Shown one piece after another: positions 874 to 28,900 of a stretch of 32,000 nt of DNA (positions within the stretch are counted from its first letter, which is position 1; the number at the start of each line of letters is the position of its first letter). The position numbers and the translations under genes were made by a program. Below the pieces are notes generated by a model. It had not been told where the DNA came from. It saw only the letters and a list, made by a program, of their open reading frames with translations, and searched no databases. Origin of the DNA: Acaryochloris marina MBIC11017 (lineage in GTDB: Bacteria > Cyanobacteriota > Cyanobacteriia > Thermosynechococcales > Thermosynechococcaceae); assembly GCF_000018105.1 (NCBI RefSeq), contig NC_009925.1, positions 3,060,001 to 3,092,000 on the forward strand, given 5' to 3'.

Positions 874-1443
874 ATGGAAACGCTGACCATCAATGCTTCA
901 AAAGCAGCATTAACTGAAGCGCAGTTTTACGACATTTGTCGTCAAAATGAAGGATTACGCTTTGAAATGACCGCACAGGGAGATTTAATCGTTATGCCTC
1001 CAGTGGGCGGTCTAAGTGGAAGTCGTGAATCTGATTTGAATGCAGATGTGCAGATTTGGAATCGGCGTACTGGCTTAGGTCGGGTATTTAGTTCTTCAAC
1101 GGTGTTTCAATTGCCCAATGGTGCGAAGCGATCACCGGATGTTGCCTGGGTCGAACAAAGTCGCTGGGATACCCTCTCAAGAGAAGCGCAAGAACGATTC
1201 CCACCCCTAGCTCCCGATTTTGTGATTGAGTTACGGTCTCGGACCGATGACCTAGCTGCACTACAAGCGAAAATGCAGGAATATGCAGAAAACGGCGTGC
1301 GGCTCGGTTGGCTAATCAATCCACAGGATCAGCAAGTAGAAATTTATCAACCAGGGAAAGATACAGAAGTGCGATCGCTGCCAACTCAACTGTCAGGAGA
1401 AGAGATATTACCAGGTTTTACCCTGGATTTATCGCCGTTTTAG
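874..1443 (+). CDS. Uma2 (DUF820) family PD-(D/E)xK endonuclease
   Basis: 189 aa with family-typical blocks GDLIVMPPVGG, SPDVAWV, PDFVIELRS, GWLINPQDQQVEIY. This family is heavily expanded in cyanobacteria. A paralog lies at 7216-7806. Confidence 0.85.
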   Translation: METLTINASKAALTEAQFYDICRQNEGLRFEMTAQGDLIVMPPVGGLSGSRESDLNADVQIWNRRTGLGRVFSSSTVFQLPNGAKRSPDVAWVEQSRWDTLSREAQERFPPLAPDFVIELRSRTDDLAALQAKMQEYAENGVRLGWLINPQDQQVEIYQPGKDTEVRSLPTQLSGEEILPGFTLDLSPF

Positions 1444-1499
1444 GGGTTAAGAACCTTTAGCGTCTATGTTCTACTTGAGGCTTACCTAAATTCCTTTAT

Positions 1500-1895
1500 T
1501 TAGGCTAAAGCCCCCACTTCAGCGCAGTTCTGGCATAGGCCAAAGAATTCTAGGGTGTGGTAAAAGACTTGAAATTTCTGGGTTTGGGCAAGCTCTTGTT
1601 CTAACTCGTGGACTGGGCAGTTCAGCAATGGCATGGAAGTGCCACAGTTGACACAAGTCAGATGATGCCGATGAGCAGAAGCAATACTATAGACTGCTTC
1701 ACCATTCGTCAAAGTACGCGTTTGCACCTTGCCATGCTGTTGGAGAACCTTGAGGGCACGGTAAATGGTTGCCAACCCCACTCGTTGTTGCTGTTTTTTT
1801 AACTCTTGGTGCAGATCCTGAGCAGAGAACTCTTGGGGCGTGGAAAAGAGGACTTCCAACACGCGCCGCTGATGAGGGGTTAGTTTCTCTGGCAT
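1500..1895 (-). CDS. zur: Fur-family metalloregulator, probably Zur (FurB-type)
   Basis: Winged-helix part RVGLATIYRALKVLQQHG and C-terminal HRHHLTCVNCG...CQNC metal sites. I prefer the ATG at 1895 (MPEKLTPHQRR) because AAGGAG sits 7 nt upstream; the ORF track start is 1940. An operator-like site lies upstream. The Zur rather than Fur call rests on the regulon content elsewhere in the window. Confidence 0.8.
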   Translation of the reverse strand: MPEKLTPHQRRVLEVLFSTPQEFSAQDLHQELKKQQQRVGLATIYRALKVLQQHGKVQTRTLTNGEAVYSIASAHRHHLTCVNCGTSMPLLNCPVHELEQELAQTQKFQVFYHTLEFFGLCQNCAEVGALA

Positions 1896-1947
1896 GCTCA
1901 ACTCCTTACTGCACCTGGAATGAGAACAGTTTTTTGGCAAATCACAA

Positions 1948-1969
1948 GATTATCAAACATGATTATCAT
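1948..1969. promoter_or_regulatory. degenerate Fur/Zur-box upstream of the regulator (possible autoregulation)
   Basis: GATTATCA occurs twice (1948-1955, 1961-1968). ATGATTATCAT (1959-1969) equals the right 11 nt of the 17-mer found at 14569 and 18686. The left half is not conserved (12/17 overall). Confidence 0.5.
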
Positions 1970-2097
1970 TCTCATTTTATGATAGCAGCCGTTCTTAAAG
2001 AGTCCGTCAATATTACGATTTAGCCCTAAGTCTTTTTGGGTTAACGACCAGAGGAATGCAGCTACTTCAGGTAATTACAGAAGATTAATTGTGGCCC

Positions 2098-5390: not shown

Positions 5391-5492
5391 GGCGGATCAT
5401 TAACAGAATCGGACAAGATCACGCTGCTCTCTCCCCAGTAGTAGAGCCACTGGCGAAATCAGCATTTGTTTACATAGCAAAGCCTTTTGCAG

Positions 5493-5642
5493 CCCCCTAA
5501 ATCCCCCATTCTGGGGGACTTTGAGCCTATAATTAAGCTGGATAATAGGACCGAAAATCTCAAGCATTGTTCTCTCAAATCTGATTTTGCATATCTGTGC
5601 GGAGAAATAGGTAAAGTCCCCCACTGGTGGGGGATTTAGGGG
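5493..5642. repeat. MITE-like inverted repeat with nested G5/C5 hairpins
   Basis: CCCCCTAAATCCCCCATTCTGGGGGACT (5493-5520) versus AGTCCCCCACTGGTGGGGGATTTAGGGG (5615-5642). The arms are near reverse complements and each contains its own CCCCC-N-GGGGG hairpin. A related GGGGGCGAGTGCAA copy lies at about 5731-5745. Confidence 0.6.
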
Positions 5643-5797
5643 ACGAGTGCAAGGGTAAAAGCCATCGATATAATCGCCCAACATAACTGGACGTAAATGT
5701 CGCCAGCAGTATCAGAATTGGGGGGCTGTAGGGGGCGAGTGCAATCCATAAAGGGTAAGAGCAGCTTCAGGTAGGATTCATACAAGAGGTCTAGTGG

Positions 5798-6919
5798 CTA
5801 GCAGATACAGTCGTTGTCGCAACAAGACAGGTCATCTAGAAACATGCCTTGCTGGCGGTAGATTTCTAAAGGTGCAGGGTCAAGGTCTAACCGACGTGCG
5901 ATCGCATCAGCCACTACCGCAAACCGCTGCCGAAATTTATAGATAAAGCAAAAAATAACATCGTGATGACGGACTGAAGGGCCAACCACAAATAGACCTG
6001 GCGTCAGCGTAGACTCATCTTCATCATTCAAAATGGCATGCCCCCCTGACCACAGAAACAGCGATGCAATCTGCTGCAAACTGGTCTCAAAACCAGTACA
6101 GAGAATCGGAGGATGAACCGTCAGCCATTTTTGGTATTCGCTGAAGACGGCATAGCCCTCTGACACTTTTTTGACTTCCTCAATAGAGACATTGCCGATC
6201 AATTCGAGACGACCCGTTTGATGGGCCAACATCACGCGCTGCAGCGTATAGGGTGACAAGGAAATACTCGGATCCGTCTCCTGGTTCCCCCACACCCCAG
6301 TCCGATCTAAAACCCTGACGCTCTTCCCTAAGGCGACTAAGTGGGTCGCGGCATCCATACCACTTTCATAGCCACCGATGATCGTAAATTCATCCCCTGG
6401 CAAATTTTTCCAAGAGCGAATCTGAGAATTGTGAATGCAATAGTCTGCCCCCAAAAATGGATTTAACTTTGGATATTGGAATTCTCCAGCAGCCCAGATC
6501 ACAAACTGGGTTTTGACGTCTCCGCCAGAAGTCTTGAGGATAAAGCCGCGACACTGAGAAAGGGGTTCAATTGCCAAAACATCCGTTCCTGTCTTCACAG
6601 GCAACTGGAAGTGATCGACCACCGTTTGCAAATAGAGCGCATACTGCTGGCCATTGATATGTTCTCGGCGAAAGGCGATCGCTGGCGATGTTTTCAAGGT
6701 AATGGCATTGAGATCGAGTAGGCCAAAACCATGACTCGGAAACGAGGGGGTGATCAAGTTCATCTCCGCTGGCCAGCGGCTAAAGGAGGCTCCGACCTGC
6801 TGCCGTTCCAACAAGATAAAGTTTTCCAGGCCCAGCTCCTGCAACACAACAGCACAACCTACTCCGGCTGGCCCTGCACCGACTATCACCACGTCATAGG
6901 AAGAAGTTGTCTGTTTCAT
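5798..6919 (-). CDS. FAD/NAD(P)-binding oxidoreductase (flavin monooxygenase / CzcO-like class) with a Cys-rich C-terminal tail
   Basis: N-terminal dinucleotide fold is YDVVIVGAGPAGVG and a second Rossmann motif is FTIIGGYESGMDAA. The C-terminus is DDLSCCDNDCIC. A 17-bp operator lies 33-49 nt upstream of the start. Confidence 0.7.
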   Translation of the reverse strand: MKQTTSSYDVVIVGAGPAGVGCAVVLQELGLENFILLERQQVGASFSRWPAEMNLITPSFPSHGFGLLDLNAITLKTSPAIAFRREHINGQQYALYLQTVVDHFQLPVKTGTDVLAIEPLSQCRGFILKTSGGDVKTQFVIWAAGEFQYPKLNPFLGADYCIHNSQIRSWKNLPGDEFTIIGGYESGMDAATHLVALGKSVRVLDRTGVWGNQETDPSISLSPYTLQRVMLAHQTGRLELIGNVSIEEVKKVSEGYAVFSEYQKWLTVHPPILCTGFETSLQQIASLFLWSGGHAILNDEDESTLTPGLFVVGPSVRHHDVIFCFIYKFRQRFAVVADAIARRLDLDPAPLEIYRQQGMFLDDLSCCDNDCIC

Positions 6920-6951
6920 CGATAGACTTGCTGCCAGCAGGGTTTTATATA

Positions 6952-6968
6952 ATGATAATCATTATCAT
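6952..6968. promoter_or_regulatory. Zur/Fur-type operator (8-1-8 palindrome)
   Basis: ATGATAATCATTATCAT is the exact reverse complement of the 17-mers at 14569 and 18686. It lies just upstream of the 5798-6919 CDS. Confidence 0.7.
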
Positions 6969-7215: not shown

Positions 7216-7806
7216 ATGACTGCTATTACACTCAACCTGGAGTCGTTAATAACGTTGACCCATGACCAGTTCTACCAACTTTGTATGGACAACAAAGATG
7301 TGGCAATGGAGCGCAGTCGGTCAGGGGAGTTAATCATTATGCCTCCAGTGGGTGGTGAAAGTGGCGAAAAAGAAGCAGACTACATCATTGATTTAGGCAT
7401 TTGGAATCGCCGCACAGGATTGGGGAAGGTATTTAGTTCCTCTACGGTATTTAAGCTACCGGGTGGGGGAGATCGCTCTCCCGACGCGGCCTGGATCCGT
7501 CAAGATCGCTGGGATGCACTATCTGCTGATGAGAAGAAGCGGTTTCCACCCATCTGTCCTGACTTTGTGATTGAGCTGCGATGGTCTCCGACCGGCCTTC
7601 GGCCATCAGAAAGCGATAGATTGAAGCCGCTTCAAGAAAAAATGCAGGAGTATCTTGGAAGTGGTTTGAGGTTGGGATGGTTGATTAACCCCCAGGATCG
7701 AACAGTGGAGATTTATCGAACAGGGCAAGCCGTGGAAGTGGTTCAGCTTCCGGCTACCCTGTCAGGAGAAGATGTTCTCCCTGATTTTTTGCTAGAGATC
7801 GTCTAA
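7216..7806 (+). CDS. Uma2 (DUF820) family endonuclease, second paralog
   Basis: 196 aa with the same blocks as 874-1443 (GELIIMPPVGG, SPDAAWI, PDFVIELR, GWLINPQDRTVEIY). It carries an extra ~8-aa segment (WSPTGLRPSESD). Confidence 0.85.
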   Translation: MTAITLNLESLITLTHDQFYQLCMDNKDVAMERSRSGELIIMPPVGGESGEKEADYIIDLGIWNRRTGLGKVFSSSTVFKLPGGGDRSPDAAWIRQDRWDALSADEKKRFPPICPDFVIELRWSPTGLRPSESDRLKPLQEKMQEYLGSGLRLGWLINPQDRTVEIYRTGQAVEVVQLPATLSGEDVLPDFLLEIV

Positions 7807-14097: not shown

Positions 14098-14490
14098 TTA
14101 CAGACTGGGGTAGGGAATCCTCGCTAGAATCCCTTTTTGCAGCGACTCTGGACGATGCTGACGGGGAACGATGCCATCTGAACTGGAATAATATTGGCGG
14201 GCCAGTTGCAAAACTGCTGCGGCACTGTCTAGGGGCAGTAGGTCACCAAACATTAGGGAGTTTTTCCCTGCTGCTGCTAGGGCAATGGTGCAGGGGCGAT
14301 TGCAGGCACTTAGGCAGTCCACCGCTTCGATCTTGAACTCAGGCGGTAGAGGTGATTGCTCCTGAAGCTGTCGTAAGCTGCTAAGTAGGTAATAACCACC
14401 GCGTTGTCCTCTGTAATCCCGTTGGGTCGGCGAGAAGGCACAGGACCGACAGACGAATAGAGCATGTTGAGTCATGATGGGCGATGCCAT
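14098..14490 (-). CDS. DUF1636-family metal-binding (thioredoxin-like) protein
   Basis: Contains LFVCRSCAFS ... VDCLSACNRPCTIA ... GILARIP, the pattern of the DUF1636 proteins that commonly accompany CobW/COG0523 genes. It has its own operator upstream. Confidence 0.7.
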   Translation of the reverse strand: MASPIMTQHALFVCRSCAFSPTQRDYRGQRGGYYLLSSLRQLQEQSPLPPEFKIEAVDCLSACNRPCTIALAAAGKNSLMFGDLLPLDSAAAVLQLARQYYSSSDGIVPRQHRPESLQKGILARIPYPSL

Positions 14491-14568: not shown

Positions 14569-14597
14569 ATGATAATGATTATCATTCTTTTTTGCAA
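14569..14597 (-). promoter_or_regulatory. sigma70-type promoter with embedded Zur/Fur-type operator for the DUF1636 gene
   Basis: Read on the minus strand: TTGCAA (14597-14592), a 17-nt spacer, then TATCAT (14574-14569). The 17-bp palindrome ATGATAATGATTATCAT (14569-14585) covers the -10 element and the spacer. Confidence 0.65.
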
Positions 14598-14748: not shown

Positions 14749-15681
14749 CTAAGAAGGAATAGGCCTTTGCAAGAGCCACTCCATCACCCGTTGCTTATGG
14801 GAGTCGATGCTAAAGACTCGCACTGCGTTACCCTGATATTCCGTCATTCTGCGATTGAGACTATCCAGAACTTGCTGTGGATAGGTCCCTTCAAGGGGTG
14901 GACAACTTTGCCAAGATCCAACCTTAAAGTGTCTAGCATCGGCCTGTTCAATGCCAATTTGATTCCCCAACCGAAGTTGACCCAGAATCTGTTCCAGCAC
15001 TTCAGCGCTCAGCTGTTCTTGGAGCCTGTCAGTCTGGGGTCGAGCTGTCTCAGAGCGATGGCCATTGTTCAGCGGTGTAGTACAGGCAACATCGTCTGCA
15101 CATCGGTAGCCTGCCAGTAAGGCTCGATTGATCTCCACCACATGATGAGAAAAACGATGATCGGTGGTCTTGGCATCCGGTAGTCGGTCAGCCTCGCTTT
15201 GGTTGGTAATTACAACCCCTGATCCAACATATTTTCCCGGTGGAATTTCCACATCCTGGATCAGTGCATGCATCATCACAATACAGCGGTGCCCGACCTT
15301 TGCATTAAATACCGTTGATCGAAAGCCGATAAAGCAATCATCACCAATATAGGCAGGTCCGTGAATCAAAGCCATATGGGTAATGCAGGTATGTTCACCA
15401 ATCCAGACCGAGTAGGACTCACCATCATCTCCAGTGACTCGCCCTCGTTCTAAGCCATGGATGACCACACCATCCTGAATATTGGTGTTCCCACCGATGT
15501 AAAAGGGCATCCCTTCGTCTGCTCGAATGGACGTGCCGGGAGCAATTAAGACCTGATGCCCCAGACGAACATCTCCGATCAAACTCGTTGAGGGATGCAC
15601 ATAGGCTGATTCATGAATTTGAGGCTGATCTAACCCTCGATCCCAAGGAGTCGGAGGCGAAGGTTGCTGACGTAGAGGCAT
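14749..15681 (-). CDS. gamma-carbonic-anhydrase domain protein with one C-terminal RbcS-like SSUL module (short CcmM-like paralog)
   Basis: Left-handed beta-helix hexapeptide repeats with the three Cam-type His positions (VIHGLE; THMALIHGP). The C-terminus reads [19 protein letters not shown]...[22 protein letters not shown], typical of a CcmM SSUL repeat. Confidence 0.8.
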
Positions 15682-15718: not shown

Positions 15719-16204
15719 TCAAAGCTGCGTCGGATTAGGGGCATCCCCATAGACCTGTTGAGGGTCAAAGGTTTTAGCAGCTTCAGTGAAAGTCAAAGCA
15801 ATGGGAGAGGAACTATCCACGGCTTCTGTCCCCACGGGAATTTGACGATAAAAACAGGATCGATAACCCACATGGCAACTGGCTCCAGAGCCCGCAACAG
15901 TCACCCGCATCCACAGACAGTCTTGATCATCATCAATCAGTAACTGCTGGACATACTGAACCAAGCCACTAGTCGCCCCTTTATGCCAGAGGGTCTGGCG
16001 ACTGCGGCTGTAGTAATGGGCCTCTCCCGTTTCAATCGTTTTCATCAGCGCAGTTTGATTCATATAGGCATGCATCAATAGTTCACCTGTCTGGGCATCA
16101 GTCGTCACCACAGGCATTAAACCGTCTGAATCAAATTTGGGGGAAAGCAGCGATCCTTCTTCAACTTCTTCGACAGAGGTACGCTGAGCAAAGGGGAGGG
16201 GCAT
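15719..16204 (-). CDS. hisI: phosphoribosyl-AMP cyclohydrolase (HisI) paralog
   Basis: Contains [38 protein letters not shown] and [12 protein letters not shown]. The usual D-C-D motif reads DDDQDC. Confidence 0.8.
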
Positions 16205-16249: not shown

Positions 16250-16786
16250 TTAGGACATTTTTTCCGGCATGCCGGAGGAGTGGTGATCCACAATGAGCCA
16301 GCGATCGCCAATTTTGCGATAGACAAAGGTAAATCTTGCCATCAGATCGGAAGGTTGGCCTTCTTTGACCACTGCAAAGGCATAGAGACCCGAATTAACG
16401 GCCAGATCACAAAAAACCTGGATATTTTGCTCCACGATCCGCCCATCCGGCTTAAGGGCCAGAAAGCCTTTGAAGTAATCTTCAATTTCAGCAGGGGTAT
16501 GTCGAACTCGGTTGGAAACCGTAGGCACCAGAATGGCATCAGGGGCATAGGTTTTGACCACTTCACTCGGTCGACCGGTTTGCAGGGATTGATCCCACTG
16601 CTCAAACAAATCGGCAATCTCTCCTGGGGCCACGGTTGGGCAGGCAGTTTCAGCTAGAACGGGGGTATAAAAAAGACTTAATAGTAAGCAGCAGCCCAGC
16701 AGCATTCCGATCGCATTCTTGATTCTGAGAAATGTTCTCTGCTGGGGCTGATCTGAGCTGCAGGGCTGATAGGCAACGTTCATCAT
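16250..16786 (-). CDS. exported NTF2/SnoaL-fold protein (CaMKII-AD / SgcJ-EcaC-like), candidate iota-class carbonic anhydrase
   Basis: Signal peptide GMLLGCCLLLSLFYTPVLA-ET. The ~130-aa mature domain ends in WLIVDHHSSGMP, resembling the HHHSS signature of iota-CAs. The ATG-ATG at 16786/16783 avoids overlap with the thrS stop. Confidence 0.55.
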   Translation of the reverse strand: MMNVAYQPCSSDQPQQRTFLRIKNAIGMLLGCCLLLSLFYTPVLAETACPTVAPGEIADLFEQWDQSLQTGRPSEVVKTYAPDAILVPTVSNRVRHTPAEIEDYFKGFLALKPDGRIVEQNIQVFCDLAVNSGLYAFAVVKEGQPSDLMARFTFVYRKIGDRWLIVDHHSSGMPEKMS

Positions 16787-16796
16787 TTTTCCTACT

Positions 16797-18647
16797 CTAA
16801 ATGTGTTGTTTGGCATCAATGGCAGACTGCATTTTTTCGCACAGTTCGGGGAGCTTCAATAGCTCCTGCTCTTCTGAATGCCGAGTTCGAATATTGAGGG
16901 TCTGGGCTTCGACTTCTTTTTGACCCACCACGGCGACCACCGGAATTTTTTCCAGGGCGGACTGGCGAATTTGTTTTCCTAAACGCTCTCCCGTCTGATC
17001 GATTTCAGCCCGAAAACCCTTCTGCTGAAGCTGCTCTAAGACTTCAAGGGCATAGGGGCGTTGGGCATCACTGACAACGAGTAGCCGAATTTGTACGGGG
17101 GCTAGCCATAGGGGGAAATCCCCTGCATAATTCTCGATTAAAATGCCGAAGAATCGTTCTAAAGACCCGAAAATGGCCCGATGAATCATAATGGGACGTT
17201 GCCGCGTTCCATCTGCAGCGACATATTCCATCTTGAAGCGCTCGGGTAAGTTAAAGTCCACCTGAATTGTGGAGCATTGCCACAGCCGTCCGATCGCATC
17301 CCGTATCTTGAGATCGATCTTCGGTCCATAAAAGGCACCCCCGCCTTCATCCGTCAGGTACTCCCAGCCTTTACGGTCTAGGGCCGTGCGCAAGTCCTGG
17401 GTGGCCAAGTCCCAAATCTCATCGCTACCCACTGATTTATCAGGCCGGGTTGAGAGATTAACCTCATAATCCCGAAAGCCAAAGTCCGACAACACCGTTT
17501 CGGTTAGATCCAGAACCGCCAAAATCTCATCGGCCACCTGATCCGGTAGACAGAAAATATGGGCATCGTCTTGGGTAAAGCCCCGGACCCGCATCAGTCC
17601 ATGTAAGGTCCCGGAGCGTTCGTACCGATAGACCGTCCCTAACTCCGCCCACCGCAGGGGAAACTCTCGATAGGAGTGGAGGTCGTGCTGATAGGTGAGC
17701 ACATGAAAGGGACAGTTCATGGGTTTGATCTGATAGGCCTGGGTCTCCACTTCCATTTGATCAAACATGCTGTCCCGGTAGAAGTCGAAATGACCCGAGG
17801 TCTTCCACAGATCCAGGTTGGCCATATGAGGGGTATAGAGCAACTCATATCCCCCCTGTGTATGCGCTTGTCGCCAGTAGGTTTCAATGACCTGGCGAAT
17901 TCGAGCCCCTCGGGGATGCCAAAAGACCAGTCCTCCGCCAGCGTTGTCTTCAATACTAAAAAGCTTCAGATTTTTGCCCAACAGGCGATGGTCTCGACGC
18001 TGGGCTTCTTCTTTTTGGTGCAGGTAAGCTTTTAACTGCTTCGGTGTTTCCCAGGCGGTTCCATAAATCCGCTGTAGCTGCGCTTGGGTTTCATCGCCAC
18101 GCCAGTAGGCTCCGGCGACGCTTTCGAGCATAAAGGCCTTAGAGTGCAGTTCCCCCGTACTGTTGAGATGGGGACCCGAGCACAGATCCCACCAAAATTC
18201 ATTGGGGGCCACTGGTAGAGGCTCAATGAGTGAGGCTTCCGCCTCGGGATGTTGGGTCCGTCCCGTGTCAGGACTGCCAATAAAATAGCGGGTAATGGTT
18301 TCCCCCGCCGGAATCTGGGCCAATATTTCTAATTTGTAGGGTTCTTGCAACTGTTCCAGTTCGGCCTGCATCTGATCGCGATCCACTTGTTCGCGGATGA
18401 TGGGCAAATTGGCTTTGATAATCCGCCGCATCTGAGTTGATATGGCATCTAAATCTTCTGGCGTAAATGCCTGGTCCCGGTCAAAGTCATAGTAGAAACC
18501 GGTCTCTGTCGTTGGACCAATCGTCACCTTCGTCTCCGGAAACAGATTCTGCACCGCCATGGCCATCACATGGGCGCAGGTGTGGCGGAGTCGCTGCAAT
18601 TGTTCAGTGGAATTGGGCGCTGACAGGGTCGAAGAAGCAGTAGACAT
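16797..18647 (-). CDS. thrS: threonyl-tRNA synthetase (no TGS domain), operator-controlled copy
   Basis: Editing-domain HTCAHVMA, class II catalytic core (KPMNCPFHV, RVRGFTQDDAHIF, GGGAFYGPKID) and a C-terminal anticodon-binding domain. It starts directly at the N2 domain. Confidence 0.9.
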   Translation of the reverse strand: MSTASSTLSAPNSTEQLQRLRHTCAHVMAMAVQNLFPETKVTIGPTTETGFYYDFDRDQAFTPEDLDAISTQMRRIIKANLPIIREQVDRDQMQAELEQLQEPYKLEILAQIPAGETITRYFIGSPDTGRTQHPEAEASLIEPLPVAPNEFWWDLCSGPHLNSTGELHSKAFMLESVAGAYWRGDETQAQLQRIYGTAWETPKQLKAYLHQKEEAQRRDHRLLGKNLKLFSIEDNAGGGLVFWHPRGARIRQVIETYWRQAHTQGGYELLYTPHMANLDLWKTSGHFDFYRDSMFDQMEVETQAYQIKPMNCPFHVLTYQHDLHSYREFPLRWAELGTVYRYERSGTLHGLMRVRGFTQDDAHIFCLPDQVADEILAVLDLTETVLSDFGFRDYEVNLSTRPDKSVGSDEIWDLATQDLRTALDRKGWEYLTDEGGGAFYGPKIDLKIRDAIGRLWQCSTIQVDFNLPERFKMEYVAADGTRQRPIMIHRAIFGSLERFFGILIENYAGDFPLWLAPVQIRLLVVSDAQRPYALEVLEQLQQKGFRAEIDQTGERLGKQIRQSALEKIPVVAVVGQKEVEAQTLNIRTRHSEEQELLKLPELCEKMQSAIDAKQHI

Positions 18648-18685: not shown

Positions 18686-18702
18686 ATGATAATGATTATC
18701 AT
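18686..18702. promoter_or_regulatory. shared Zur/Fur-type operator in the thrS / folE divergent promoter region
   Basis: ATGATAATGATTATCAT is a perfect 8-1-8 palindrome. A TATAAT lies at 18711-18716 on the plus strand and another at 18706-18701 on the minus strand. Confidence 0.7.
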
Positions 18703-18789
18703 TATATCTGTATAATGTCAGTTTGCTTTTGGATTAAAGCCGACTGGATCTCGAAGTTCCTCTTATCCCTTTCCGCATTAGGAGTTTGT

Positions 18790-19425
18790 ATGACCGTGCC
18801 TTCCATCCCTTCATTTGTCCCTGAGACGCTTACCACTGAAGCTCAGCCCATCGTCTCGGAGGCCGAAATGGAGGCCGCCGTCCGCACGTTGTTGCTGGGT
18901 ATGGGTGAAGATCCCGATCGCGAAGGCCTGCGAGATACCCCTAAGCGAGTGGTTAAATCTTTAAAATTTCTGTCTTCGGGTTATCAGCAATCCCTGGATG
19001 AATTGCTAAATGGGGCCGTCTTCTCCGAAGATCTAGATGAAATGGTACTGGTGCGCGATATTGACCTCTTTAGTTCCTGCGAACATCACATCTTGCCCAT
19101 CATCGGCAAAGCCCATGTGGCCTATATCCCCAACGGCAAAGTGATTGGCCTGTCGAAAATCGCCCGCATCTGTGAAATGTATGCTCGGCGACTTCAGGTC
19201 CAAGAACGGTTAACCGCCCAAATTGCTGATGCCTTACAGGGTCTCCTGAAGCCCCAAGGGGTAGCTGTCGTGGTAGAAGCAAGCCATATGTGTATGGTGA
19301 TGCGTGGGGTACAAAAACCCGGATCGTGGACCTCCACCAGCGCGATGCGAGGCGTCTTTTCCAGTGATGCCCGCACCCGCCAAGAGTTCTTTAACTTGGT
19401 TGCCCACGCACCCGCCATTCGCTAG
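18790..19425 (+). CDS. folE: GTP cyclohydrolase I (FolE type IA)
   Basis: Contains [18 protein letters not shown] and [14 protein letters not shown] lies 7 nt upstream of the ATG at 18790; the track start at 18715 is probably too far upstream. Confidence 0.9.
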
Positions 19426-19449
19426 TTCCGGCTTCAGCCGATCAGCACT

Positions 19450-20424
19450 ATGCTTCCCGTCCCTGGACTCTTTGAATACCGTCTGCCCGTCACCCTGATC
19501 ACGGGCTTTTTGGGGAGTGGTAAAACCACTCTGCTGAACCATCTAATGCGCCATCTGAGGGATCGACGCGCGGCGGTGTTTGTCAATGAATTTGGAGCCA
19601 TTGACATTGATAGCCAAATTCTGGTGACCGTAGATGAAGATCTGGTGGCCTTGTCTAACGGCTGTATCTGCTGCCAGATCAGAGATGATTTTCTGATGGC
19701 CTTCCGACGGGTTTTGGCCTATAACCAAATGCAAACGTCTGCCGGAAAACGGGGGCTAGATGCCATTTTCTTGGAAACATCTGGGGTGGCCGATCCCTAT
19801 CCACTGATGCTCACCTTTAGAGCGACTGAACTCTGGAGCTTAACCCGGTTGGATGCAATCCTGACCGTTGTGGATGCTGAGACCTTTACAGCTGAGTATT
19901 TCCAAAGTCAGGCTGCTCTTGCCCAAATTCAACATGGCGACATCATCCTGCTGAATAAAACTGATCTAGTGGATGACGAACAGCTTAGGTCTGTAGAAAC
20001 AGAAATTCAGCGCTTCAAGCCCCAGGCCAGGATATTACCGATGACCTATGGTCAAGTTCCTCTTTCCAGCGTTTTGGATGTGGATCTCTATTCCGAGGAC
20101 ATGTCAACAGACTCCCCCTCAGGAGTCCAGCATCTGCAGAATGACGGGTTTGTCGCTGTCCCCTTTGAAAGCGATCGCCCCTTTAGCTTAAGAAAATTTC
20201 AGAAATTTTTGGACTATCAGCTCCCCTCAGAAGTCTTTCGAGCAAAAGGGGTTCTCTGGTTTGACGAAAGTCCCCACAGACATCTCTTTCAACTCAGTGG
20301 TAAGCGGAGCCAACTTCAGGATGAGGCTTGGCAAGATCCTCCCAGAAACCAACTGGTGTGCATTGGCCGTAACCTAGATGAAGAAGAATTACAACATCAG
20401 CTCCATCAGTGTCTTGCCCCATGA
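19450..20424 (+). CDS. COG0523 (CobW/ZigA/Zng1-type) metallochaperone GTPase
   Basis: Walker A GFLGSGKTTLLN, the metal motif GCICCQI, NKTDL, and a CobW_C-like C-terminal domain (RAKGVLWF). Confidence 0.85.
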   Translation: MLPVPGLFEYRLPVTLITGFLGSGKTTLLNHLMRHLRDRRAAVFVNEFGAIDIDSQILVTVDEDLVALSNGCICCQIRDDFLMAFRRVLAYNQMQTSAGKRGLDAIFLETSGVADPYPLMLTFRATELWSLTRLDAILTVVDAETFTAEYFQSQAALAQIQHGDIILLNKTDLVDDEQLRSVETEIQRFKPQARILPMTYGQVPLSSVLDVDLYSEDMSTDSPSGVQHLQNDGFVAVPFESDRPFSLRKFQKFLDYQLPSEVFRAKGVLWFDESPHRHLFQLSGKRSQLQDEAWQDPPRNQLVCIGRNLDEEELQHQLHQCLAP

Positions 20425-21179
20425 ATAGTCCTTCTGTTATAGCCGTCGCTGGCCCCTGTGGCAGTGGTAAAACCACCTGGATTAACCAGTTTTTAAAAAT
20501 TGAAACGGCTCCCTTCTTTTATTTCTATCCAGACCTAGACCGGAGCTCCGTTGACTTAATACGGATTGGCTATTCTTTCCCTAGGACCCAGGTGATGTCT
20601 GATCTGCAGGCTCCTCAGATGTTCTCCTCCCTGCCCGACGGAGCAATCATCTATCTAGAGCTAGATTTTCCTCAGCCCATAGAACCTCTCCTGCCGAAGG
20701 CGCTTCCTTGTCATCACGTGGCTTTACTGCCGCCTTATCTTCAAGATTCTGCCTGGCACGAATGGGCAGATGAGATTGTTCCAGGAAACAAAATTACGAT
20801 TCCAAATGTAACCCAGCCCTCTGAGCGATGGCACGCCCCCTTGCAGGGGCAAGTCTTTGATCCTGCAAGCTTAGAGGTCGTGCTGACGGAACTGATCGAG
20901 GGAGCCTATGGTGATGTTGATCGTTTGAAAGGTATCTTTGAGATGCCCGATGGCCAAGCCCTTTATATTGATTTTGTGGCCGGGCTAGAGGGGGTTGAAT
21001 ATACCGAACTCAATATTCCTCGTTGGCTAGAGGGACGACCCGACCGCTGGAGTGGGATTGAAGTCATAGGCAACAATCTACAGCCTAAAATCATCTCCGA
21101 AACCCTCTTGGATGGAGGCCTAACTGATCAAATCATTGCCTATTATCAACAGCAATACCAAGCCTTAAGCCCTGCATAA
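20421..21179 (+). CDS. degenerate COG0523-like P-loop protein lacking the CxCC motif
   Basis: Has Walker A GPCGSGKTTWINQF and a CobW_C-like RLKGIFEMPDG but no CxCC and no NKxD. The ATG at 20421 overlaps the upstream TGA (ATGA, 20421-20424). Confidence 0.6.
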   Translation: MNSPSVIAVAGPCGSGKTTWINQFLKIETAPFFYFYPDLDRSSVDLIRIGYSFPRTQVMSDLQAPQMFSSLPDGAIIYLELDFPQPIEPLLPKALPCHHVALLPPYLQDSAWHEWADEIVPGNKITIPNVTQPSERWHAPLQGQVFDPASLEVVLTELIEGAYGDVDRLKGIFEMPDGQALYIDFVAGLEGVEYTELNIPRWLEGRPDRWSGIEVIGNNLQPKIISETLLDGGLTDQIIAYYQQQYQALSPA

Positions 21180-22860: not shown

Positions 22861-25800
22861 TTACGGAGAATCGCTATCTTCAGATTCTTCCATGATTTCG
22901 AAATCACTAATGTATTCCCGGACAACACGCTCGAAAAATAGTGGTGCCGGTAAAGTCGTAGATTCTGAATAGTGCCCGACTACATATCTTAAAGACTCAA
23001 CAAGACAGGCTATTTGGTCAGGATCGTCTTCTTCCTGACATAAGGTCACGACAATCTCAATTGGATTGGGCGTTGGCCATTGCTTTATGAAAGGCATTTT
23101 TTCAGACAATTCTCGTACTTCGAGACCAGCGGCATTTTTTATAGTTTTTACCTTCTTTGTCAAACCCGAATTTTCTGAGGATCCATCATCATTCTGAATC
23201 TCTACAGCGGTGTGTGCTTGAGTAGTACGATAGCAGCTTTGACCTCTCCACTGTTGCTGAACAGCTCTACTGCCGATAGACAAGTATGTTTTGCATCCTG
23301 TTGAGTTAGATGTGGATAGCCTGAATAGCTTGCCGAGCGTACTAGAGGCAGATGGGATTTTGAGATCTGGGTCTGCTGTAGCTCTTTGTTTCAATTCATC
23401 TAAGGATCTCCCATCGTCCATGAACGTTTCCATAAGGTGGCGTACTTTCTCTTCAATGATTCCCGGCGTAAATCCTTGTCGTATACGAATCAATCTCGCA
23501 CCTGCCCATTCTTTATGCATCCAATTGGAAACTCCTTCAAGGCGAATATCGTTCGCATCTATACGAGAATCAGCCAGCCAGGGCCATAAATACGCACAGT
23601 TGGTAGAATCTACCATTATTAGTGGATGCATGTTTTTCTCAACAGAGTCAGAAACAACGCATCTGACAAACTGCATGAAGTTTTTCTTGCGCATTTCACG
23701 ATTATTTCCTATCTTGACGGGAGAAATCGCTGAAACTTTCGTGAGTGCATCAGAAAATCTTTCCCACTCAGTTATCTCAAGCTTATTCTCGTCTGCATAA
23801 GCGCAGCGCATATCGCATAGCCCCGTTTCAACCTGAATACGAATCGCGATAGGTAAAAAGGTACTTTCAATACGCCCTCTCACACGTCCCTTTTGTTTCC
23901 GAACGATAGTGATAGCGATAATTTCTTTAGGTTTAGATTCTGACGGTATCTTCAAGCACTCGTCAACTTTGGCTTTGATGCCCTCGACACGACCTGAATG
24001 CGCAGATAATAAATCTTTTAGCGCCTGCTGCGCTCGACGGGAATAGTCTACTAAATCAACTTTGCTCTCTTCCTTCGTCCTCTCCATCTGAGTGATAAAT
24101 TGTACACAAGCGCCACCGACGCTAGCTAATGCTCTTCGTGTAGATGGTTTATTAATTGGATCATCTCGTTTATCTATGCCATTGTCTGTGAAAAACTTTG
24201 GAGCCAGCACAAGGCAGAATGTGTGCTCCTCTCTTGCAGCAATTTGATTAGCGATTGACTCCCATGCTTTAAGACGTTGTTTAGAACGCTCTTTCCCTTT
24301 TTTATTAGGTTCTGGAAGATCGTGTTTTGATCCATGTGTGTCTGGTGGTAAAGTGTTTGTCAAAATCTCAACGGATTTACCCCAGAGTAATTGAGCCGTC
24401 GCTTCCAGGAAGCTTAGCTCTTTTTGAAAGCCGTCTTGATAAAAGATGAAAAGAGATAGCTTTTTCCCTGGATATATTCTCTCTAGGGCACTACTGTTGC
24501 GGTCTCTGATCACCTTAAGTGCTTCAAATTCTTCCCTCTTTAATTCTTTAGTCTGAAGTCGCTTTCTCCCAGCGATAATAGCTTCTAACGAAAGACAAAA
24601 TTTTTCTTTCATCTGTTTCTCAAGCTGATTATCGCTAAGTTTATTTACGTAGTCTGGTGTAAAATTAACTGACTCAGACTCTTGTGCTTCGAGCATAGCG
24701 CTTAATAGTGTTGGTAGCTTAATTTCTTTTTCTTTCTGTCGTCCGCTGCTTTTATTTTTGACAACCTCATAATCGGTAAAAGGTACTAAGCCAATAGAAC
24801 GCACTAATTTCTCTATATTTACGTAGGCTTCTAACTTATCAGTCTCTGGTACGCCTACATCAATGCCATGTTTTTCCAGTCCGTTTCGATGCGTGAGGGC
24901 AAGCTGTGAGCCACCATAATCGGCCTTCTTCAGGACAATGTCTTGTCCACTAAATGCTTGCATACCCAAATCTAGCTGATTGCGAATAGCACCAAAGTCT
25001 TTAGCTGTTTTCCAACTCCACTCTTTGTTTTCTTTGCAGCAGACGACTTTGAAGCTGAATGTACGGCCTGGCAAATCTGGAGAAAATGCATAACCAAAAA
25101 TATCGTTGCGATAGCGATCAGGTGCCTCAAGTGAATCCAGCCATCGACGCTTCGAGACATCTATCTCAATTACTGGCTGGTGGACTGAAGGAAAGGTGAC
25201 GAGCTGTAGCTTCACCACCAAACTAAATCGGCCTTTATTCGTTATTGAGATCGGGGTAGTTACTAGCTCAGCAGTACTGCTCATAAATTTCCCGTAGCTA
25301 GAGATGACCCGCCTCATGGGACCGCAGCCTTTAAATATTTCTTGGCCTGCAATTAAACGAGCAATGTAATCTACAACTAACGTGTAGGCACGGCCGTGAT
25401 CTGCTTTAGTCGTTCCAGTTTTCTGCTGCCATGGCCACGGCAGAAGAGTCATTTCAAAGGGACGACTGTGTATGAGATTGCCTTTCTCAGCCAGCTCTCG
25501 TATTTGTTCTAGTAATTTCTCAGGGATATCTTTCTTTTCGCAGAACGGTCTCAAGTCATTAGTAATCCAGTTATTCAAGACAAGTCGCAATCTCTTTGAA
25601 AGCTCTTCATCGTTATCGCTATCTATCAGACGTGCGAAGTCATAATTTTGCGGATTGCTACTGCGGATTTCTCTGATTAAAGTGCTTTTTAAGCACAAGT
25701 GATTCTCAATTCGATCAATTTCTTTTACTAGGACGTTCAGTAGTCCTCTTAACGATTGATAGGGAAGTTCTTTGTACTTTTCTTCTTCTCCATAGGCTGC

Positions 25801-25956
25801 CTTGTGAATGTCACTAAAGCTCTTTAGAGCTTGCCTTGTCCAGACAAGTGTTACGCCACTGGCGTGAATTGGCGGTAAGTCATCTGGAACTGTAAATGCC
25901 AAAGCAACATCACGCAGCTTTTTGATTTGACCAGGCTGAATGTAGTATTTTGTCAT
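22861..25956 (-). CDS. large Argonaute-like protein, best fit pPIWI-RE (MID plus RNase H-fold PIWI module)
   Basis: 1031 aa with no NTPase motif. KPSTRRALASVGGACVQFI resembles the MID/PIWI K..R..G..Q.I block. The C-terminal ~250 aa has LIMVD(783)STN, LIRIRQG, NPIE(967)IVV and LRYVVGHY...LPAPLFFERV. It is the last gene of the nuclease-helicase-PIWI trio. Confidence 0.55.
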   Translation of the reverse strand: MTKYYIQPGQIKKLRDVALAFTVPDDLPPIHASGVTLVWTRQALKSFSDIHKAAYGEEEKYKELPYQSLRGLLNVLVKEIDRIENHLCLKSTLIREIRSSNPQNYDFARLIDSDNDEELSKRLRLVLNNWITNDLRPFCEKKDIPEKLLEQIRELAEKGNLIHSRPFEMTLLPWPWQQKTGTTKADHGRAYTLVVDYIARLIAGQEIFKGCGPMRRVISSYGKFMSSTAELVTTPISITNKGRFSLVVKLQLVTFPSVHQPVIEIDVSKRRWLDSLEAPDRYRNDIFGYAFSPDLPGRTFSFKVVCCKENKEWSWKTAKDFGAIRNQLDLGMQAFSGQDIVLKKADYGGSQLALTHRNGLEKHGIDVGVPETDKLEAYVNIEKLVRSIGLVPFTDYEVVKNKSSGRQKEKEIKLPTLLSAMLEAQESESVNFTPDYVNKLSDNQLEKQMKEKFCLSLEAIIAGRKRLQTKELKREEFEALKVIRDRNSSALERIYPGKKLSLFIFYQDGFQKELSFLEATAQLLWGKSVEILTNTLPPDTHGSKHDLPEPNKKGKERSKQRLKAWESIANQIAAREEHTFCLVLAPKFFTDNGIDKRDDPINKPSTRRALASVGGACVQFITQMERTKEESKVDLVDYSRRAQQALKDLLSAHSGRVEGIKAKVDECLKIPSESKPKEIIAITIVRKQKGRVRGRIESTFLPIAIRIQVETGLCDMRCAYADENKLEITEWERFSDALTKVSAISPVKIGNNREMRKKNFMQFVRCVVSDSVEKNMHPLIMVDSTNCAYLWPWLADSRIDANDIRLEGVSNWMHKEWAGARLIRIRQGFTPGIIEEKVRHLMETFMDDGRSLDELKQRATADPDLKIPSASSTLGKLFRLSTSNSTGCKTYLSIGSRAVQQQWRGQSCYRTTQAHTAVEIQNDDGSSENSGLTKKVKTIKNAAGLEVRELSEKMPFIKQWPTPNPIEIVVTLCQEEDDPDQIACLVESLRYVVGHYSESTTLPAPLFFERVVREYISDFEIMEESEDSDSP

Positions 25957-25966
25957 GGATAGCTAA

Positions 25967-28900
25967 TCACTGTTCGTAGAAATGTGAGTATGAGTCGAAA
26001 TCGTCTGTTTCGGGTGTCTCATCTGAAAGGTGCTGTGGCTCTTTGGGATACTTAACGCCAGCGATTTCTCTCAAGGGTTCTAAAAAAGCACCGTAGAGTT
26101 CTTGGTAAATTGAACGGTCAGTTGGATCGGGATGATTGATACAGTCTTCTAAAATGCTGCGCATTTGAACTAACATGCTGTCTCTGCCTGAATCCGGTTT
26201 GCCTAAAGCAGAGTTCATAGCCCAAGCAGCATCTACAAAGTAAACTGCGACGGGGCAACCGTTTCGCATACCTCGGCCGATGGTTTGTAGAATGGCAACC
26301 ATTTGGTTCGCAGTGAAAGCCTTAAACAGCTCGGGACTCAGGCGACTGGCCATGATAGGCTCCCGCAGAAGTTGATTAGCCGTTCTCCACAGGTCTTTTC
26401 TGGCCTGTTGCCAAGAATTGGCGATCGCATCCACATCTTCTTCTCCAAACGTCCTGCTATCAAAATCCTGCGTTGCCTGCCCTGCCAAGCTATACAGCAA
26501 CTGCATATCGTCGCTAGTAGGATGCGGCCGAGTCAAAAAGTAAATAGAGCCAATCGCCGCATCTAGCATTCGCGGCCCTTTTGTGAAAACGATATTAACG
26601 CCGCGACCGATTGCTAGCATCGGGAAAACAATAATGTCGCAACTATCATCATCACCTAAAGACTCGCACTGTCCCGTTGTTACATAGTCGTCAGATTTTT
26701 CTCCTTCTTTAAGGAATCGAACAACCGCCTTAGTGCGACGTCCGGTCTCTGGATAGTATCTATTTAGAAATGTTTTAACCATTCTTGCTTGTTCATAGCT
26801 ATTCACAATGAGCGCTGCCTTCCGCTTTTGGCCACCGCGAACATCAAAATTATTGATAGATTTATAAATCTCAGACTGCCGGGCATCTTCGTTTCTCGTT
26901 CCACCCTTCACCAGTTCTTCAATCATTTTTTTGAGATTGCGTTCTCTAGATTCTCCGGCTCCGCTGTAACGTAGGGGTTGGCTTCTCCACTCTTTATCTG
27001 CCTGCCACTTAAACTCATACCGACTGGGTTCAGTTTTGTACAAAGGTTCAAGAGGTTTGAGAAGATAGTCCGGTTTGATGTTTACGTTGTAGGCAGGACT
27101 TGCCTCCAGGAATGAAGTTGCCGATGTTAATAGAGTCGCTGGGCCGCGATGATTATTGTCTGGAGATAGCAACTGATGAAATCGGTACATTAGCATTCGG
27201 GGGGCACCTACAAATGCTACGTACGATATTTCTACATTTCTAGCGTTTGTACGGGTTGTTTGTGCCTTAGAGAATGTGTATTTAACGCCAGAGAGCGAGC
27301 CAAGTAGACTGCTTGGGATCATCCGCCGTAGCGATCGCGAGGCTGTGGATTGAATAATTGGATCCCGAATCAAACCTTCTGCAACTAGAGCCCGAGTACC
27401 TGGAATGATACGCTGGTAGCCAAGAATAACGAACGTTACTACGATAAGTAGTTTGATAGCATCTGATTCCTTTCCGGTCGATGAATGATCAGGAAAGCAA
27501 ATTGATAGATAGAACTGGGATATTTCCTGAGAGATTTCATCTCTTCGCTGCGCTAAGCCTTCTGCAAGATAGCGCTGAAAATGTTGAATGAGCGTGTCTC
27601 GTTTCTCTTCTAGCTCTGTTTCTGAAATCCTTAGAGTAGCCGCATTAAAAGAAAGGTTTTTCCACTCATCTCTATTGCTACTAGTACGGTTGTAAAAAGC
27701 GTTGTAGGCTGCGGTCTCCCAGAAATCAGTCAGCGCCCGACTGCGGTTAACCTTAAGTCTTCTACCCTCATCTGTCGGGGGCTTCTTCTCTTCAGGATTC
27801 AATCGGTTCTGCCCGTTCTCGTTTACTATTTCGCTAACGATTTTAAGAACAGTCAGTAGCTGGTTCTCGTATTTTTCTCCAATGTAAGACTCATTGAGAT
27901 TTTGAACCGTTGTAACGAGCGCACTATTATGGTTTCCAAAGTCGGATAAGTGCCAGCTAAAAGTGGCAATATCGGGATCTGCTAGGCGATGATTGTCTTT
28001 GCCTGCAAAACGACTGTGAATTTGCTCTTGAATGGTTCTGTGAATAGATTTCTCTGAGCCAGAGATACTCAGTGTTGCCGCGCCGTAGGCATCTAGATTT
28101 GACTGCACCATATCCGCTTCATCGAACACGACTACATCAAAAGTCCGTGCAATCAGCTCAAAGTAGCGAATTCGCACTTGTACTGCATGAGACGAGACGG
28201 GTGTATCCATAGAGCGAATATGCCCGACCCATATGTTGGATGTAGTTAGCTCACGTACGGATTTGTTCCGTCCACACATGGTCCAAAGTGGACACAAGCA
28301 GGGTTTCAACTCTCCTTTGCTGTCACTTTGCAGAACAGCATTACAAGGCGCGTAGCCAAACCCCCACATTGATGTGTCCGCATTGGAAAAGGCAGGCAAT
28401 ACACAGTTGAGACTGAAAATATCTGCAACGCCTAGCGTATGGGAAAATCCTCTGTTCGGATATGCTGCCGCGATCGCCTCTGCTAAATTATCGGCATGGC
28501 GTCTGCGCGTTTCATCGCTTTGCCCTACCAACATACCGACTTTAACGGCATGAAACTGTAAAACGTCCATGTACTGCCTGGACACTTCAATAGAGGGAAA
28601 GACGAACATCGCTTTGTAGTTTTCTTGGGCTAGCCACATAGCAATGAGAATAAGGATTGTTGTTTTCCCTGATCCTGGTAATCCAATCAGATGCTTTATT
28701 CCCGCTAAAGTCAAAGTATCTGTTGGTTGTAGTCCATCTGCTGTGGGAACGGTCAGCATAAATCTCTCTAGCCGACTAGCCCATCGACCTGGACGCCGTT
28801 CAGGATAGTTTGCCTCCCGGTCGTCCATCTTGACAGCCAGTACTTTTAAGTCTTCGAGAGGAATTCGAATATTGTCTTGTAGCTGTCGATTCAGTGGATG

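Follow-up and report, generated by a model that had tools for sequence, protein, structure and literature searches.

Carbonic anhydrase (CA) is the classic example of a zinc enzyme, and in phototrophs much of the zinc is tied up in it. The iota class of CAs falls into a COG4875 type, which includes LCIP63, BteCA-iota, and 3H51, and a COG4337 type, which includes all2909 and Bn86287 (Hirakawa 2021, PMC8132391). Here we describe an iota-CA-like gene located at positions 16250..16786 on the minus strand of a 32,000-nucleotide stretch of the Acaryochloris marina MBIC11017 genome (NC_009925.1, positions 3,060,001 to 3,092,000; hereafter the window), where it is the second gene of a four-gene unit preceded by a match to the operator of the zinc regulator Zur (a Zur box). 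The reading that we favor, to which we assign a probability of about 60%, is that the gene encodes an exported, Zur-derepressed COG4875-type iota-CA that would work independently of zinc and hydrate external CO2 when zinc is low, and that gammaproteobacterial copies of the gene would act likewise in the cytoplasm.

Among described proteins, the A. marina protein is like XcaCA (3H51, COG4875) from Xanthomonas campestris in having a single NTF2-like domain and the same PTVS, (D/N)YF, and HHSS residues, whereas 3H51 reads NHHSS and the A. marina protein DHHSS. We know of no zinc-related genomic context for 3H51. In the literature 3H51 is treated as XcaCA; it is 51% identical to BteCA-iota of Burkholderia territorii and was the template for the model of that enzyme (PMC8425729). 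It is also more than 40% identical to the domains of LCIP63. BteCA-iota is the only enzymatically characterized bacterial COG4875 iota-CA and, like the A. marina protein, is a bacterial protein of one domain in which a signal peptide is predicted, with an SgcJ/EcaC annotation and an (H)HHSS motif; the kinship between the two is known only through 3H51. Unlike the state that we propose for the A. marina protein, BteCA-iota is reported to be Zn dependent, and no Zur link has been reported for it.

The diatom iota-CAs LCIP63 (Tp-iota-CA) and Pt-iota-CA are likewise composed of COG4875 domains, with approximately 40% identity and the same set of Thr, Tyr, His, and Ser residues. They differ in being eukaryotic and plastid targeted, with two to four repeated domains and regulation that does not involve Zur, and LCIP63 is reported to be activated by Mn. 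The abundance of Pt-iota-CA goes up at low Zn/Co, which was read as zinc sparing (Kellogg 2022, PMC9010474). The original prediction for this locus, made from the DNA letters of the window, held that a Zn-independent CA switched on by Zur would be an undocumented zinc-sparing substitution; the diatom work already documents zinc sparing by an iota-CA, and only the bacterial, Zur-based version seems to be undocumented. Iota-CAs of the COG4337 type, such as all2909 (7C5V/W) and Bn86287 (7C5X/Y), share the fold, the HHSS motif, and the catalytic residues with the A. marina protein, and bacterial members of this type also bear signal peptides. However, the COG4337 type has a longer helix-loop region before the catalytic Tyr, and a COG4337 protein of A. 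marina itself has an insertion of about 40 residues relative to the protein described here.

With respect to gene context, the locus is like the Zur-regulated clusters that contain the gamma-CA Cam, where COG0523, folE2, pyrC2, dksA2, hisI, and thrS paralogs lie under Zur boxes (Haas et al. 2009). In contrast to an iota-CA, Cam has a left-handed beta-helix fold and still uses a metal (Fe or Zn), and compared with the Cam clusters the cyanobacterial unit is distinct in holding an iota-CA and a gamma-type CcmM paralog together. The unit is also like the thrS2 operon of Anabaena sp. PCC 7120 (all4725-all4721), which is led by thrS2, is associated with folE and COG0523, and has the same 15-nucleotide operator, but no iota-CA or ccmM-like gene is reported for that operon, and all2909 (COG4337) lies elsewhere.

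Family placement, active site, and leader

The open reading frame (ORF) of the iota-CA-like gene extends on the minus strand from an ATG at 16786 to a stop codon at 16250-16252 (537 nucleotides, 178 amino acids). A weak AGGA lies just 5' of two adjacent ATGs at the gene start, and an alternative, longer ORF beginning with TTG at 16819 would run into the 3' end of thrS2. After its leader the protein is a single domain with the C-terminus ...DRWLIVDHHSSGMPEKMS; this predicted mature NTF2-like domain (residues 46-178; 16253..16651, minus strand), supported by an AlphaFold2 model and Foldseek, is of the NTF2/CaMKII-AD kind and terminates in WLIVDHHSSGMP. Pfam, PDB, and profile matches place the pre-protein in the COG4875 / PF08332 type. 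The Pfam match was to CaMKII_AD (PF08332) with an E-value of 9.2e-19 and 68.3 bits (cut-off 22.1); DUF4440 and SnoaL_3 gave weaker matches. In the protein database the nearest sequence was one from Acaryochloris marina (91% identity), and the top PDB sequence match was 3H51 (E 2.7e-33, 48% identity across 124 alignment columns). When a profile was made from 22 homologs, its E-values were 5e-52 for 3H51 and 3.4e-14 for 7C5X, the Bigelowiella iota-CA, with all other NTF2 entries at 8e-5 or higher. Domain 3 of LCIP63 is about 40% identical to the A. marina protein (E 3e-27), values that are approximate because the LCIP63 sequence was read from a figure by optical character recognition. The AlphaFold2 model of the mature domain has three helices and a curved sheet (mean predicted local distance difference test score 93.8, predicted template modeling score 0.87), and its top Foldseek match was again 3H51 (E 2.7e-18, template modeling score 0.89).

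Membership of COG4337 was rejected, as phmmer against 7C5X gave an E-value of 0.28 and BLASTP against A. marina WP_012163455 gave a gapped alignment with 29% identity (E 3e-4). In a published alignment, 3H51 and LCIP63 occupy a block separate from the COG4337-type sequences. Given its kinship to 3H51, BteCA-iota, and LCIP63 as against only 29% identity to the A. marina COG4337 protein, the protein is, as judged from these matches, a COG4875-type iota-CA homolog that stands outside the COG4337 branch first shown to be metal free. Two other NTF2 subfamilies were rejected as well. The SnoaL cyclase models SnoaL_2 (25.3, cut-off 27) and SnoaL_4 (22.6, cut-off 24) both scored below the Pfam threshold, and ketosteroid isomerase structures matched the family profile only at E-values of 0.02-0.1, with Foldseek identities of 15-16%.

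Mutagenesis of all2909 identified Thr106, Tyr124, His197, and Ser199 as required for activity (Hirakawa 2021, PMC8132391), and the equivalents in Tp-iota-CA are Thr62, Tyr77, His139, and Ser141 (residue roles in PMC8132391 and PMC8395977). In alignments, Thr89 of the A. marina protein, within a PTVS motif (codon 16520..16522, minus strand), corresponds to Thr106 of all2909 and Thr62 of Tp-iota-CA, and Tyr104, within a DYF motif (codon 16475..16477, minus strand), corresponds to Tyr124 and Tyr77. The HHSS motif is formed by His168-His169-Ser170-Ser171 (codons 16274..16285, minus strand; plus-strand sequence GGAGGAGTGGTG), in which H169 takes the place of His197 of all2909 and S171 that of Ser199. 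These four residues are in register with those of Tp-iota-CA and the COG4337 proteins in pairwise and published alignments and are invariant in alignments of 22 and 47 homologs, and the spacing of 15 residues between the Thr and the Tyr is the same as in Tp-iota-CA. The position ahead of HHSS is Asp here; in 75 relatives it was occupied by Glu (64 sequences), Asp (10), or Thr (1), so this clade lacks the "HHH" triad that had been suggested to form a metal site.

The cavities of all2909 and 3H51 are made of almost identical residues (Hirakawa Fig. S5, PMC8132391), and metal independence has been demonstrated for COG4337-type iota-CAs (Hirakawa 2021, PMC8132391). A diatom iota-CA has furthermore been described as metal free and induced by zinc scarcity (editorial PMC13579330, on Avilan 2026). 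The A. marina iota-CA is most likely metal free, with a Mn requirement as the lesser alternative; the hints for this, the missing HHH triad, the cavity residues, and the Zur-regulon context, are indirect.

The N-terminus has the features of a Sec signal peptide by inspection (residues 1-45; 16652..16786, minus strand), with a basic n-region (RTFLRIKN), a hydrophobic core (IGMLLGCCLLLSLFY), and a VLA|ET junction that suggests cleavage after VLA45. The best 11-residue Kyte-Doolittle mean, measured in the near-identical leader of a second Acaryochloris genome, was 2.7. Orthologs bear classic leaders of 22-24 amino acids, for example MKKITLIIVGLFALLLVCSPAYA|DT. Leaders are present in the cyanobacterial copies and a few others, and none was found in the gammaproteobacterial copies from zinc clusters. 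A lipoprotein reading of the "LLGC" in the leader was rejected, as the orthologs have no consistent lipobox and one has no Cys, and a Tat signal was rejected for lack of a twin-arginine (RR) motif in the leader. A pair of cysteines, Cys49 and Cys126 (codons 16640-16642 and 16409-16411, minus strand), co-varies with the signal peptide: both were present in 13 of 13 cases, all of them leader bearing, one never occurred alone, and both were absent from all 52 leaderless copies (52/52). This distribution fits a disulfide made in an oxidizing compartment, and a Cys49-Cys126 disulfide is probably specific to the exported cyanobacterial form. The CO2-concentrating mechanism (CCM) of cyanobacteria builds up a bicarbonate pool that is short-circuited by CA activity in the cytosol, so an extracytoplasmic site would be physiologically sensible for a cyanobacterium. 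We infer that the 178-residue protein is exported by the Sec pathway to the periplasm, or possibly to the thylakoid lumen.

These results partly agree with the original prediction, which had proposed an exported NTF2-fold protein of 178 residues, with the C-terminus seen here, that belongs to the iota-CA family. The ORF, the PF08332 match, and the leader fit that description, export itself being predicted, and the catalytic Thr and Tyr proved to be in register in addition to HHSS. The profile and alignment comparisons that it had proposed gave PF08332 and the COG4875 type, not COG4337, with the protein aligning to characterized iota-CAs, and neither the SnoaL_2 and SnoaL_4 models nor the ketosteroid isomerase structures placed it in a different NTF2 subfamily. 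Two of its details need amending. The motif had been called HHHSS type, of which HHSS is present while the first His is an Asp, giving DHHSS, and the proposed metal-independent iota-CA is of the right family but belongs to COG4875, not to COG4337, where metal independence was demonstrated.

The gene unit and its Zur boxes

The iota-CA gene is part of a minus-strand unit with the order thrS2 > iota-CA > hisI > ccmM-like gamma-CA and gaps of 10, 45, and 37 nucleotides. The first gene, thrS2 (16797..18647, minus strand), is a thrS paralog without the TGS domain, and its stop codon lies 10 nucleotides before the iota-CA ATG. The paralog of hisI (phosphoribosyl-AMP cyclohydrolase; 15719..16204, minus strand) begins 45 nucleotides downstream of the iota-CA gene, and the last gene (14749..15681, minus strand) encodes a CcmM-like protein in which domain searches recognize a gamma-CA domain and a single RbcS-like (SSUL) module. 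A perfect Zur box, TGATAATGATTATCA (18687..18701), is located in the 67-bp divergent intergenic region between thrS2 and folE, 40-54 nucleotides upstream of the thrS2 ATG. A promoter-like site found by consensus scan only (TATACA, 17-nucleotide spacer, TATCAT; 18686..18714, minus strand) has its -10 within this Zur box. The box matches Zur-binding sites of Anabaena, such as that of alr3242, TGATAATCATTATCA (PMC10957091 Table S3). In Anabaena, Zur represses thrS2 at a promoter immediately ahead of the gene, and expression rises about 200-fold when zinc is limiting (PMC4787780), and HisI paralogs are known members of Zur regulons (PMC2770081). No terminator-like hairpin was found between thrS2 and the ccmM-like gene. 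From the Anabaena-type box on the -10, the absence of hairpins, and the precedent of Anabaena thrS2, we strongly infer that the unit is under Zur control.

Zur-type sites are abundant in the window. Three perfect 15-nucleotide palindromes were found in the 32 kb, and eight sites with up to three mismatches were observed against 1.8 expected, a number that was reached in 0 of 100 shuffles. The second perfect box (14570..14584) lies 80 nucleotides upstream of a DUF1636 gene (14098-14490, minus strand) and overlaps a -10-like TATCAT, and the third, TGATAATCATTATCA (6953..6967), is upstream of a Pyr_redox_3 gene (5798-6919, minus strand). The zinc-limitation operon setting claimed in the original prediction is upheld by these boxes, and the gamma-CA gene that it had placed two ORFs downstream is indeed found there, with hisI in between.

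Divergent from thrS2 is a plus-strand unit (18715..21179) of folE (18715-19425), a COG0523 GTPase gene (19450-20424), and a gene for a COG0523-like protein with only the CobW_C domain (20409-21179). A Fur-family regulator gene (1500-1940, minus strand; 1500..1974 with its box) is a candidate zur and has a Zur-like box with two mismatches 20 nucleotides upstream (1960-1974). A firm assignment as Zur was rejected, since no NCBIfam model reached its cut-off and the Fur and PerR models scored above Zur; on these subtype scores the gene stays only a candidate.

The CcmM-like paralog has 310 amino acids, and its gamma-CA domain matches the active CcmM209 of T. elongatus (3KWC, E 2.4e-94). It retains the C-terminal Cys pair (RCADDVAC), and at one of the surveyed loci (L003) the ccmM-like homolog has its own perfect Zur box at 19557-19571. 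We found no paper on a short ccmM-like gamma-CA paralog, which may be a variant of the carboxysomal CA or scaffold for zinc starvation.

Elsewhere in the window, another unit under a perfect Zur box (2098-6967, minus strand) lies upstream of the Fur-family gene and encodes the Pyr_redox_3 flavoprotein, a FeoB-like GTPase/Gate protein, and a 486-residue protein without a family match. Two genes of the Uma2 family (putative restriction endonucleases) lie within the zinc island (874-1443 and 7216-7806, both plus strand). Directly beside the zinc cluster is a pPIWI_RE island (22861-30893, minus strand), a prokaryotic defense system of three genes encoding an Argonaute-like pPIWI_RE protein (1031 amino acids), a domain-Z/DEAD helicase (1145 amino acids), and a REase/domain-Y protein (501 amino acids).

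Recurrence of the zinc-gene association

In order to describe the association beyond A. marina, related loci were surveyed with one genome per species, which yielded 584 loci; the counts given here are from the best 80. Links to zinc-limitation genes were found in 24 of these 80 loci, across two phyla. Zur boxes accompany zinc-limitation genes in all seven of the closest cyanobacterial loci (Acaryochloris, Microcoleus, several Leptolyngbyaceae, and Aphanocapsa), with DUF1636, crp, COG0523, folE, and hisI near the gene. In six of the seven the iota-CA gene stands directly behind thrS2, and each of these thrS2 genes has an upstream Zur box with one or two mismatches. At the locus of the second Acaryochloris genome (L001), thrS2 and the iota-CA gene are separated by a 5.8-kb insertion resembling mobile or toxin-antitoxin elements (837-6630), and a new and perfect Zur box is present at 6507-6521, approximately 220 bp upstream of the iota-CA gene. 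The appearance of a new box after the insertion suggests that Zur control is being maintained. The insertion contains genes for a Uma2 endonuclease, a 932-residue transposase-like protein, and a nucleotidyltransferase, and a stretch of about 90 bp from the 3' end of thrS2 occurs twice.

Approximately 17 further loci are zinc linked, 15 of them from marine gammaproteobacteria (Porticoccaceae, Cellvibrionales, Pseudomonadales, Oceanospirillaceae, Neiella, and Maricurvus). The gammaproteobacterial copies are leaderless proteins of 121-123 amino acids. Their neighbors variously include a Fur-family gene (best model Zur), COG0523, DUF1826, merC, hisI, pyrC2, folE2, thrS/thrS2, and dksA2. Three of these loci (L038, L064, and L073) have operons whose last gene is the iota-CA gene and which are preceded by Zur boxes of the gamma type (TGTTATAATATAACA and TGTTATGTTATAACA). 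No gamma-CA gene was found in the zinc-linked gammaproteobacterial loci, whereas zinc clusters of the Pseudomonas type do hold a Zur-regulated gamma-CA (Haas et al. 2009, PMC2770081). In a neighbor-joining tree the two zinc-linked groups are separate clades.

The 13 cyanobacterial copies outside the zinc-linked clade have no Zur boxes and no recurrent link to CCM or bicarbonate-transporter genes. Their neighbors include chemotaxis genes and genes for a TonB receptor, SdhA, GDT1, and LeuA, which lend no independent support to a CA function. Two individual loci have other contexts. In Nostoc sp. CHAB 5715 (L008, 64-2892), a same-clade ortholog is directly 3' of a TonB-dependent receptor gene and 5' of a DUF7676 gene, where the contig is cut. 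In "Cyanobacteria bacterium LVE1205-1" (L022, 7374-10415), a COG4875 gene whose N-terminus looks frameshifted is directly 3' of ccmM (three SSUL modules) and ccmN in a carboxysome operon, which recalls the carboxysomal iota-CAs reported in sulfur oxidizers.

Proposed role, alternatives, and implications

If the gene does encode a zinc-independent exported iota-CA under Zur, events would run as follows. When zinc is sufficient, Zn-loaded Zur would occupy TGATAATGATTATCA over the thrS2 -10 and the thrS2 > iota-CA > hisI > ccmM-like unit would be repressed; when zinc is scarce, Zur would leave the site and the four genes would be transcribed. The pre-protein would be exported to the periplasm, or possibly to the thylakoid lumen, and its leader would be cleaved after VLA45. 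The NTF2-like cone would then fold, probably stapled by the Cys49-Cys126 disulfide, and CO2 would be hydrated in the cavity formed by Thr89, Tyr104, His169, and Ser171, with zinc unused. In this way extracytoplasmic interconversion of CO2 and HCO3- would be sustained while Zn-dependent CAs cannot be metallated. The CcmM-like gamma-CA of the unit may serve the carboxysome in an equivalent way, and in gammaproteobacteria the leaderless copies would have the same function in the cytoplasm. The presence of the same family in zinc-starvation clusters of unrelated marine bacteria suggests that it works independently of zinc.

Several points weigh against this role. A. marina has two exported COG4337 iota-CAs, WP_012162027.1 and WP_012163455.1 (Hirakawa 2021 Table S1, PMC8132391), so it is less obvious why another zinc-free external CA would be needed. 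The 32-kb window has no alpha- or beta-CA gene to match the Zn-dependent external CAs that, in the original prediction, the protein would replace. A majority of the loci surveyed (56/80), including the 13 other cyanobacterial copies, are without a zinc-gene link or Zur box, so Zur control appears to be specific to certain clades and not a trait of the family. The COG4875 members that have been assayed were reported as Mn activated (LCIP63) or Zn requiring (BteCA-iota), although these metal activations were subsequently questioned (PMC8425729), and the closest structure, 3H51, is a structural-genomics entry known from its structure alone. Some Zur-regulated paralogs retain Zn sites (Haas et al. 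2009, PMC2770081), so membership in a Zur regulon is no proof of zinc independence. The Foldseek list below 3H51 was flat, with generic NTF2, ketosteroid isomerase, and CaMKII-hub structures and no solved iota-CA in the top 50; since fold alone cannot assign the function, motifs and profiles were relied on instead. Finally, the NCBI family name for the protein is "SgcJ/EcaC oxidoreductase". We took this NCBIfam label (TIGR02246) as a generic family name and not as an assignment, because a protein annotated in this way has been shown to be a CA in the iota-CA literature. Apart from the question of function, the co-occurrence of COG4337 and COG4875 proteins in A. marina is contrary to a published statement that one organism very rarely has both types.

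The alternative that survives best, unlikely as we consider it, is that the gene encodes an NTF2-like protein with some other role in zinc starvation, for example a periplasmic zinc or metallophore accessory protein, an isomerase, or an SgcJ/EcaC "oxidoreductase" as TIGR02246 labels the family. NTF2-like folds serve many functions that cannot be predicted from sequence, exported Zur-regulated proteins are often zinc-acquisition factors, as is the case for Anabaena ZepA, and the position of the Nostoc ortholog directly behind a TonB-dependent receptor gene would suit such a role, as would the modest activities measured for iota-CAs. However, the closest characterized homologs are CAs, all four residues proven by mutagenesis are invariant, and the His-His pair is described as facing into a buried cavity. 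An isomerase or cyclase is further disfavored by the SnoaL_2 and SnoaL_4 scores below their Pfam cut-offs and by E-values of at least 0.02 for ketosteroid isomerase structures. The gammaproteobacterial copies in zinc clusters are leaderless and lie among enzyme paralogs (PyrC2, FolE2, HisI, and ThrRS), not among transporters, and the clusters of the Pseudomonas type hold a gamma-CA among the same kinds of paralogs.

It is also improbable that the protein is a metal-dependent iota-CA, using Zn or containing a structural Zn, that is induced to raise its copy number or to compete for zinc. BteCA-iota was seen to be active when Zn2+ was added, and the Zn was suggested to be structural (PMC8425729). 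Zn ligands are retained in the Zur-regulated paralogs HisI, ThrRS, CysRS, QueD, and AmiA, which may act by increasing copy number (Haas et al., PMC2770081), and thrS2 and hisI of the A. marina unit belong to this class of paralogs. On the other hand, the protein has no HHH triad, with Glu, Asp, or Thr before HHSS in 75 of 75 relatives, its cavity residues equal those of the metal-free enzymes, and the authors of the BteCA-iota study could not place Zn in their model (PMC8425729). Zn2+ inhibits both LCIP63 and the B. natans iota-CA, and the diatom iota-CA induced at low zinc is the one described as metal free (PMC13579330). A third explanation, that the gene is a passenger brought behind thrS2 by a lineage-specific accident, with no zinc link and perhaps its own unregulated promoter, would accommodate the 56 loci outside zinc clusters and the internal promoters that exist in Anabaena zinc operons, but it is very improbable given that Acaryochloris, Microcoleus, Leptolyngbyaceae, and Aphanocapsa share the linkage, which is also found independently, with other neighbors, in several gammaproteobacterial families, that only 10 nucleotides and no terminator-like site separate the gene from thrS2, that a perfect Zur box lies about 220 bp upstream where the two were separated in the second Acaryochloris genome, and that about 19 of the 80 loci have a COG0523 gene within 6.5 kb against about 1% by chance (a rough, uncomputed estimate).

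Iota-CAs themselves, their signal-peptide-bearing bacterial members, the replacement of enzymes by Zur-regulated paralogs including gamma-CA, and zinc sparing by a diatom iota-CA are already known. The cross-phylum association of iota-CAs with Zur seems to be the new part; we found no paper that ties bacterial or cyanobacterial iota-CAs, or the corresponding Pfam and COG names, to Zur or COG0523, in a search that covered subscription journals thinly. A wider proposal, to which we would give somewhat less than even odds, is that COG4875 iota-CAs are an unrecognized, recurrent part of bacterial Zur regulons, with an exported form in one clade of cyanobacteria and a cytoplasmic form in marine gammaproteobacteria, and that the whole COG4875 branch is zinc independent in vivo. 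If this were true, the association would supply genetic evidence on the disputed metal requirement of the COG4875 enzymes and settle that question, and the only CA candidate of the gammaproteobacterial clusters would be an iota-CA, where clusters of the Pseudomonas type have a gamma-CA. A new class would also be added to the zinc-sparing paralogs FolE2, DksA2, PyrC2, and gamma-CA, and metal-free CAs are of interest for CO2-capture biocatalysis. Carbon acquisition under zinc scarcity bears on the productivity of oceans and lakes, and a bacterial iota-CA wired to Zur would show a diatom-like solution arising in prokaryotes. In A. marina, a single Zur-controlled operon would re-equip both the external (iota) and the carboxysomal (CcmM-like gamma) CA for zinc-poor water.

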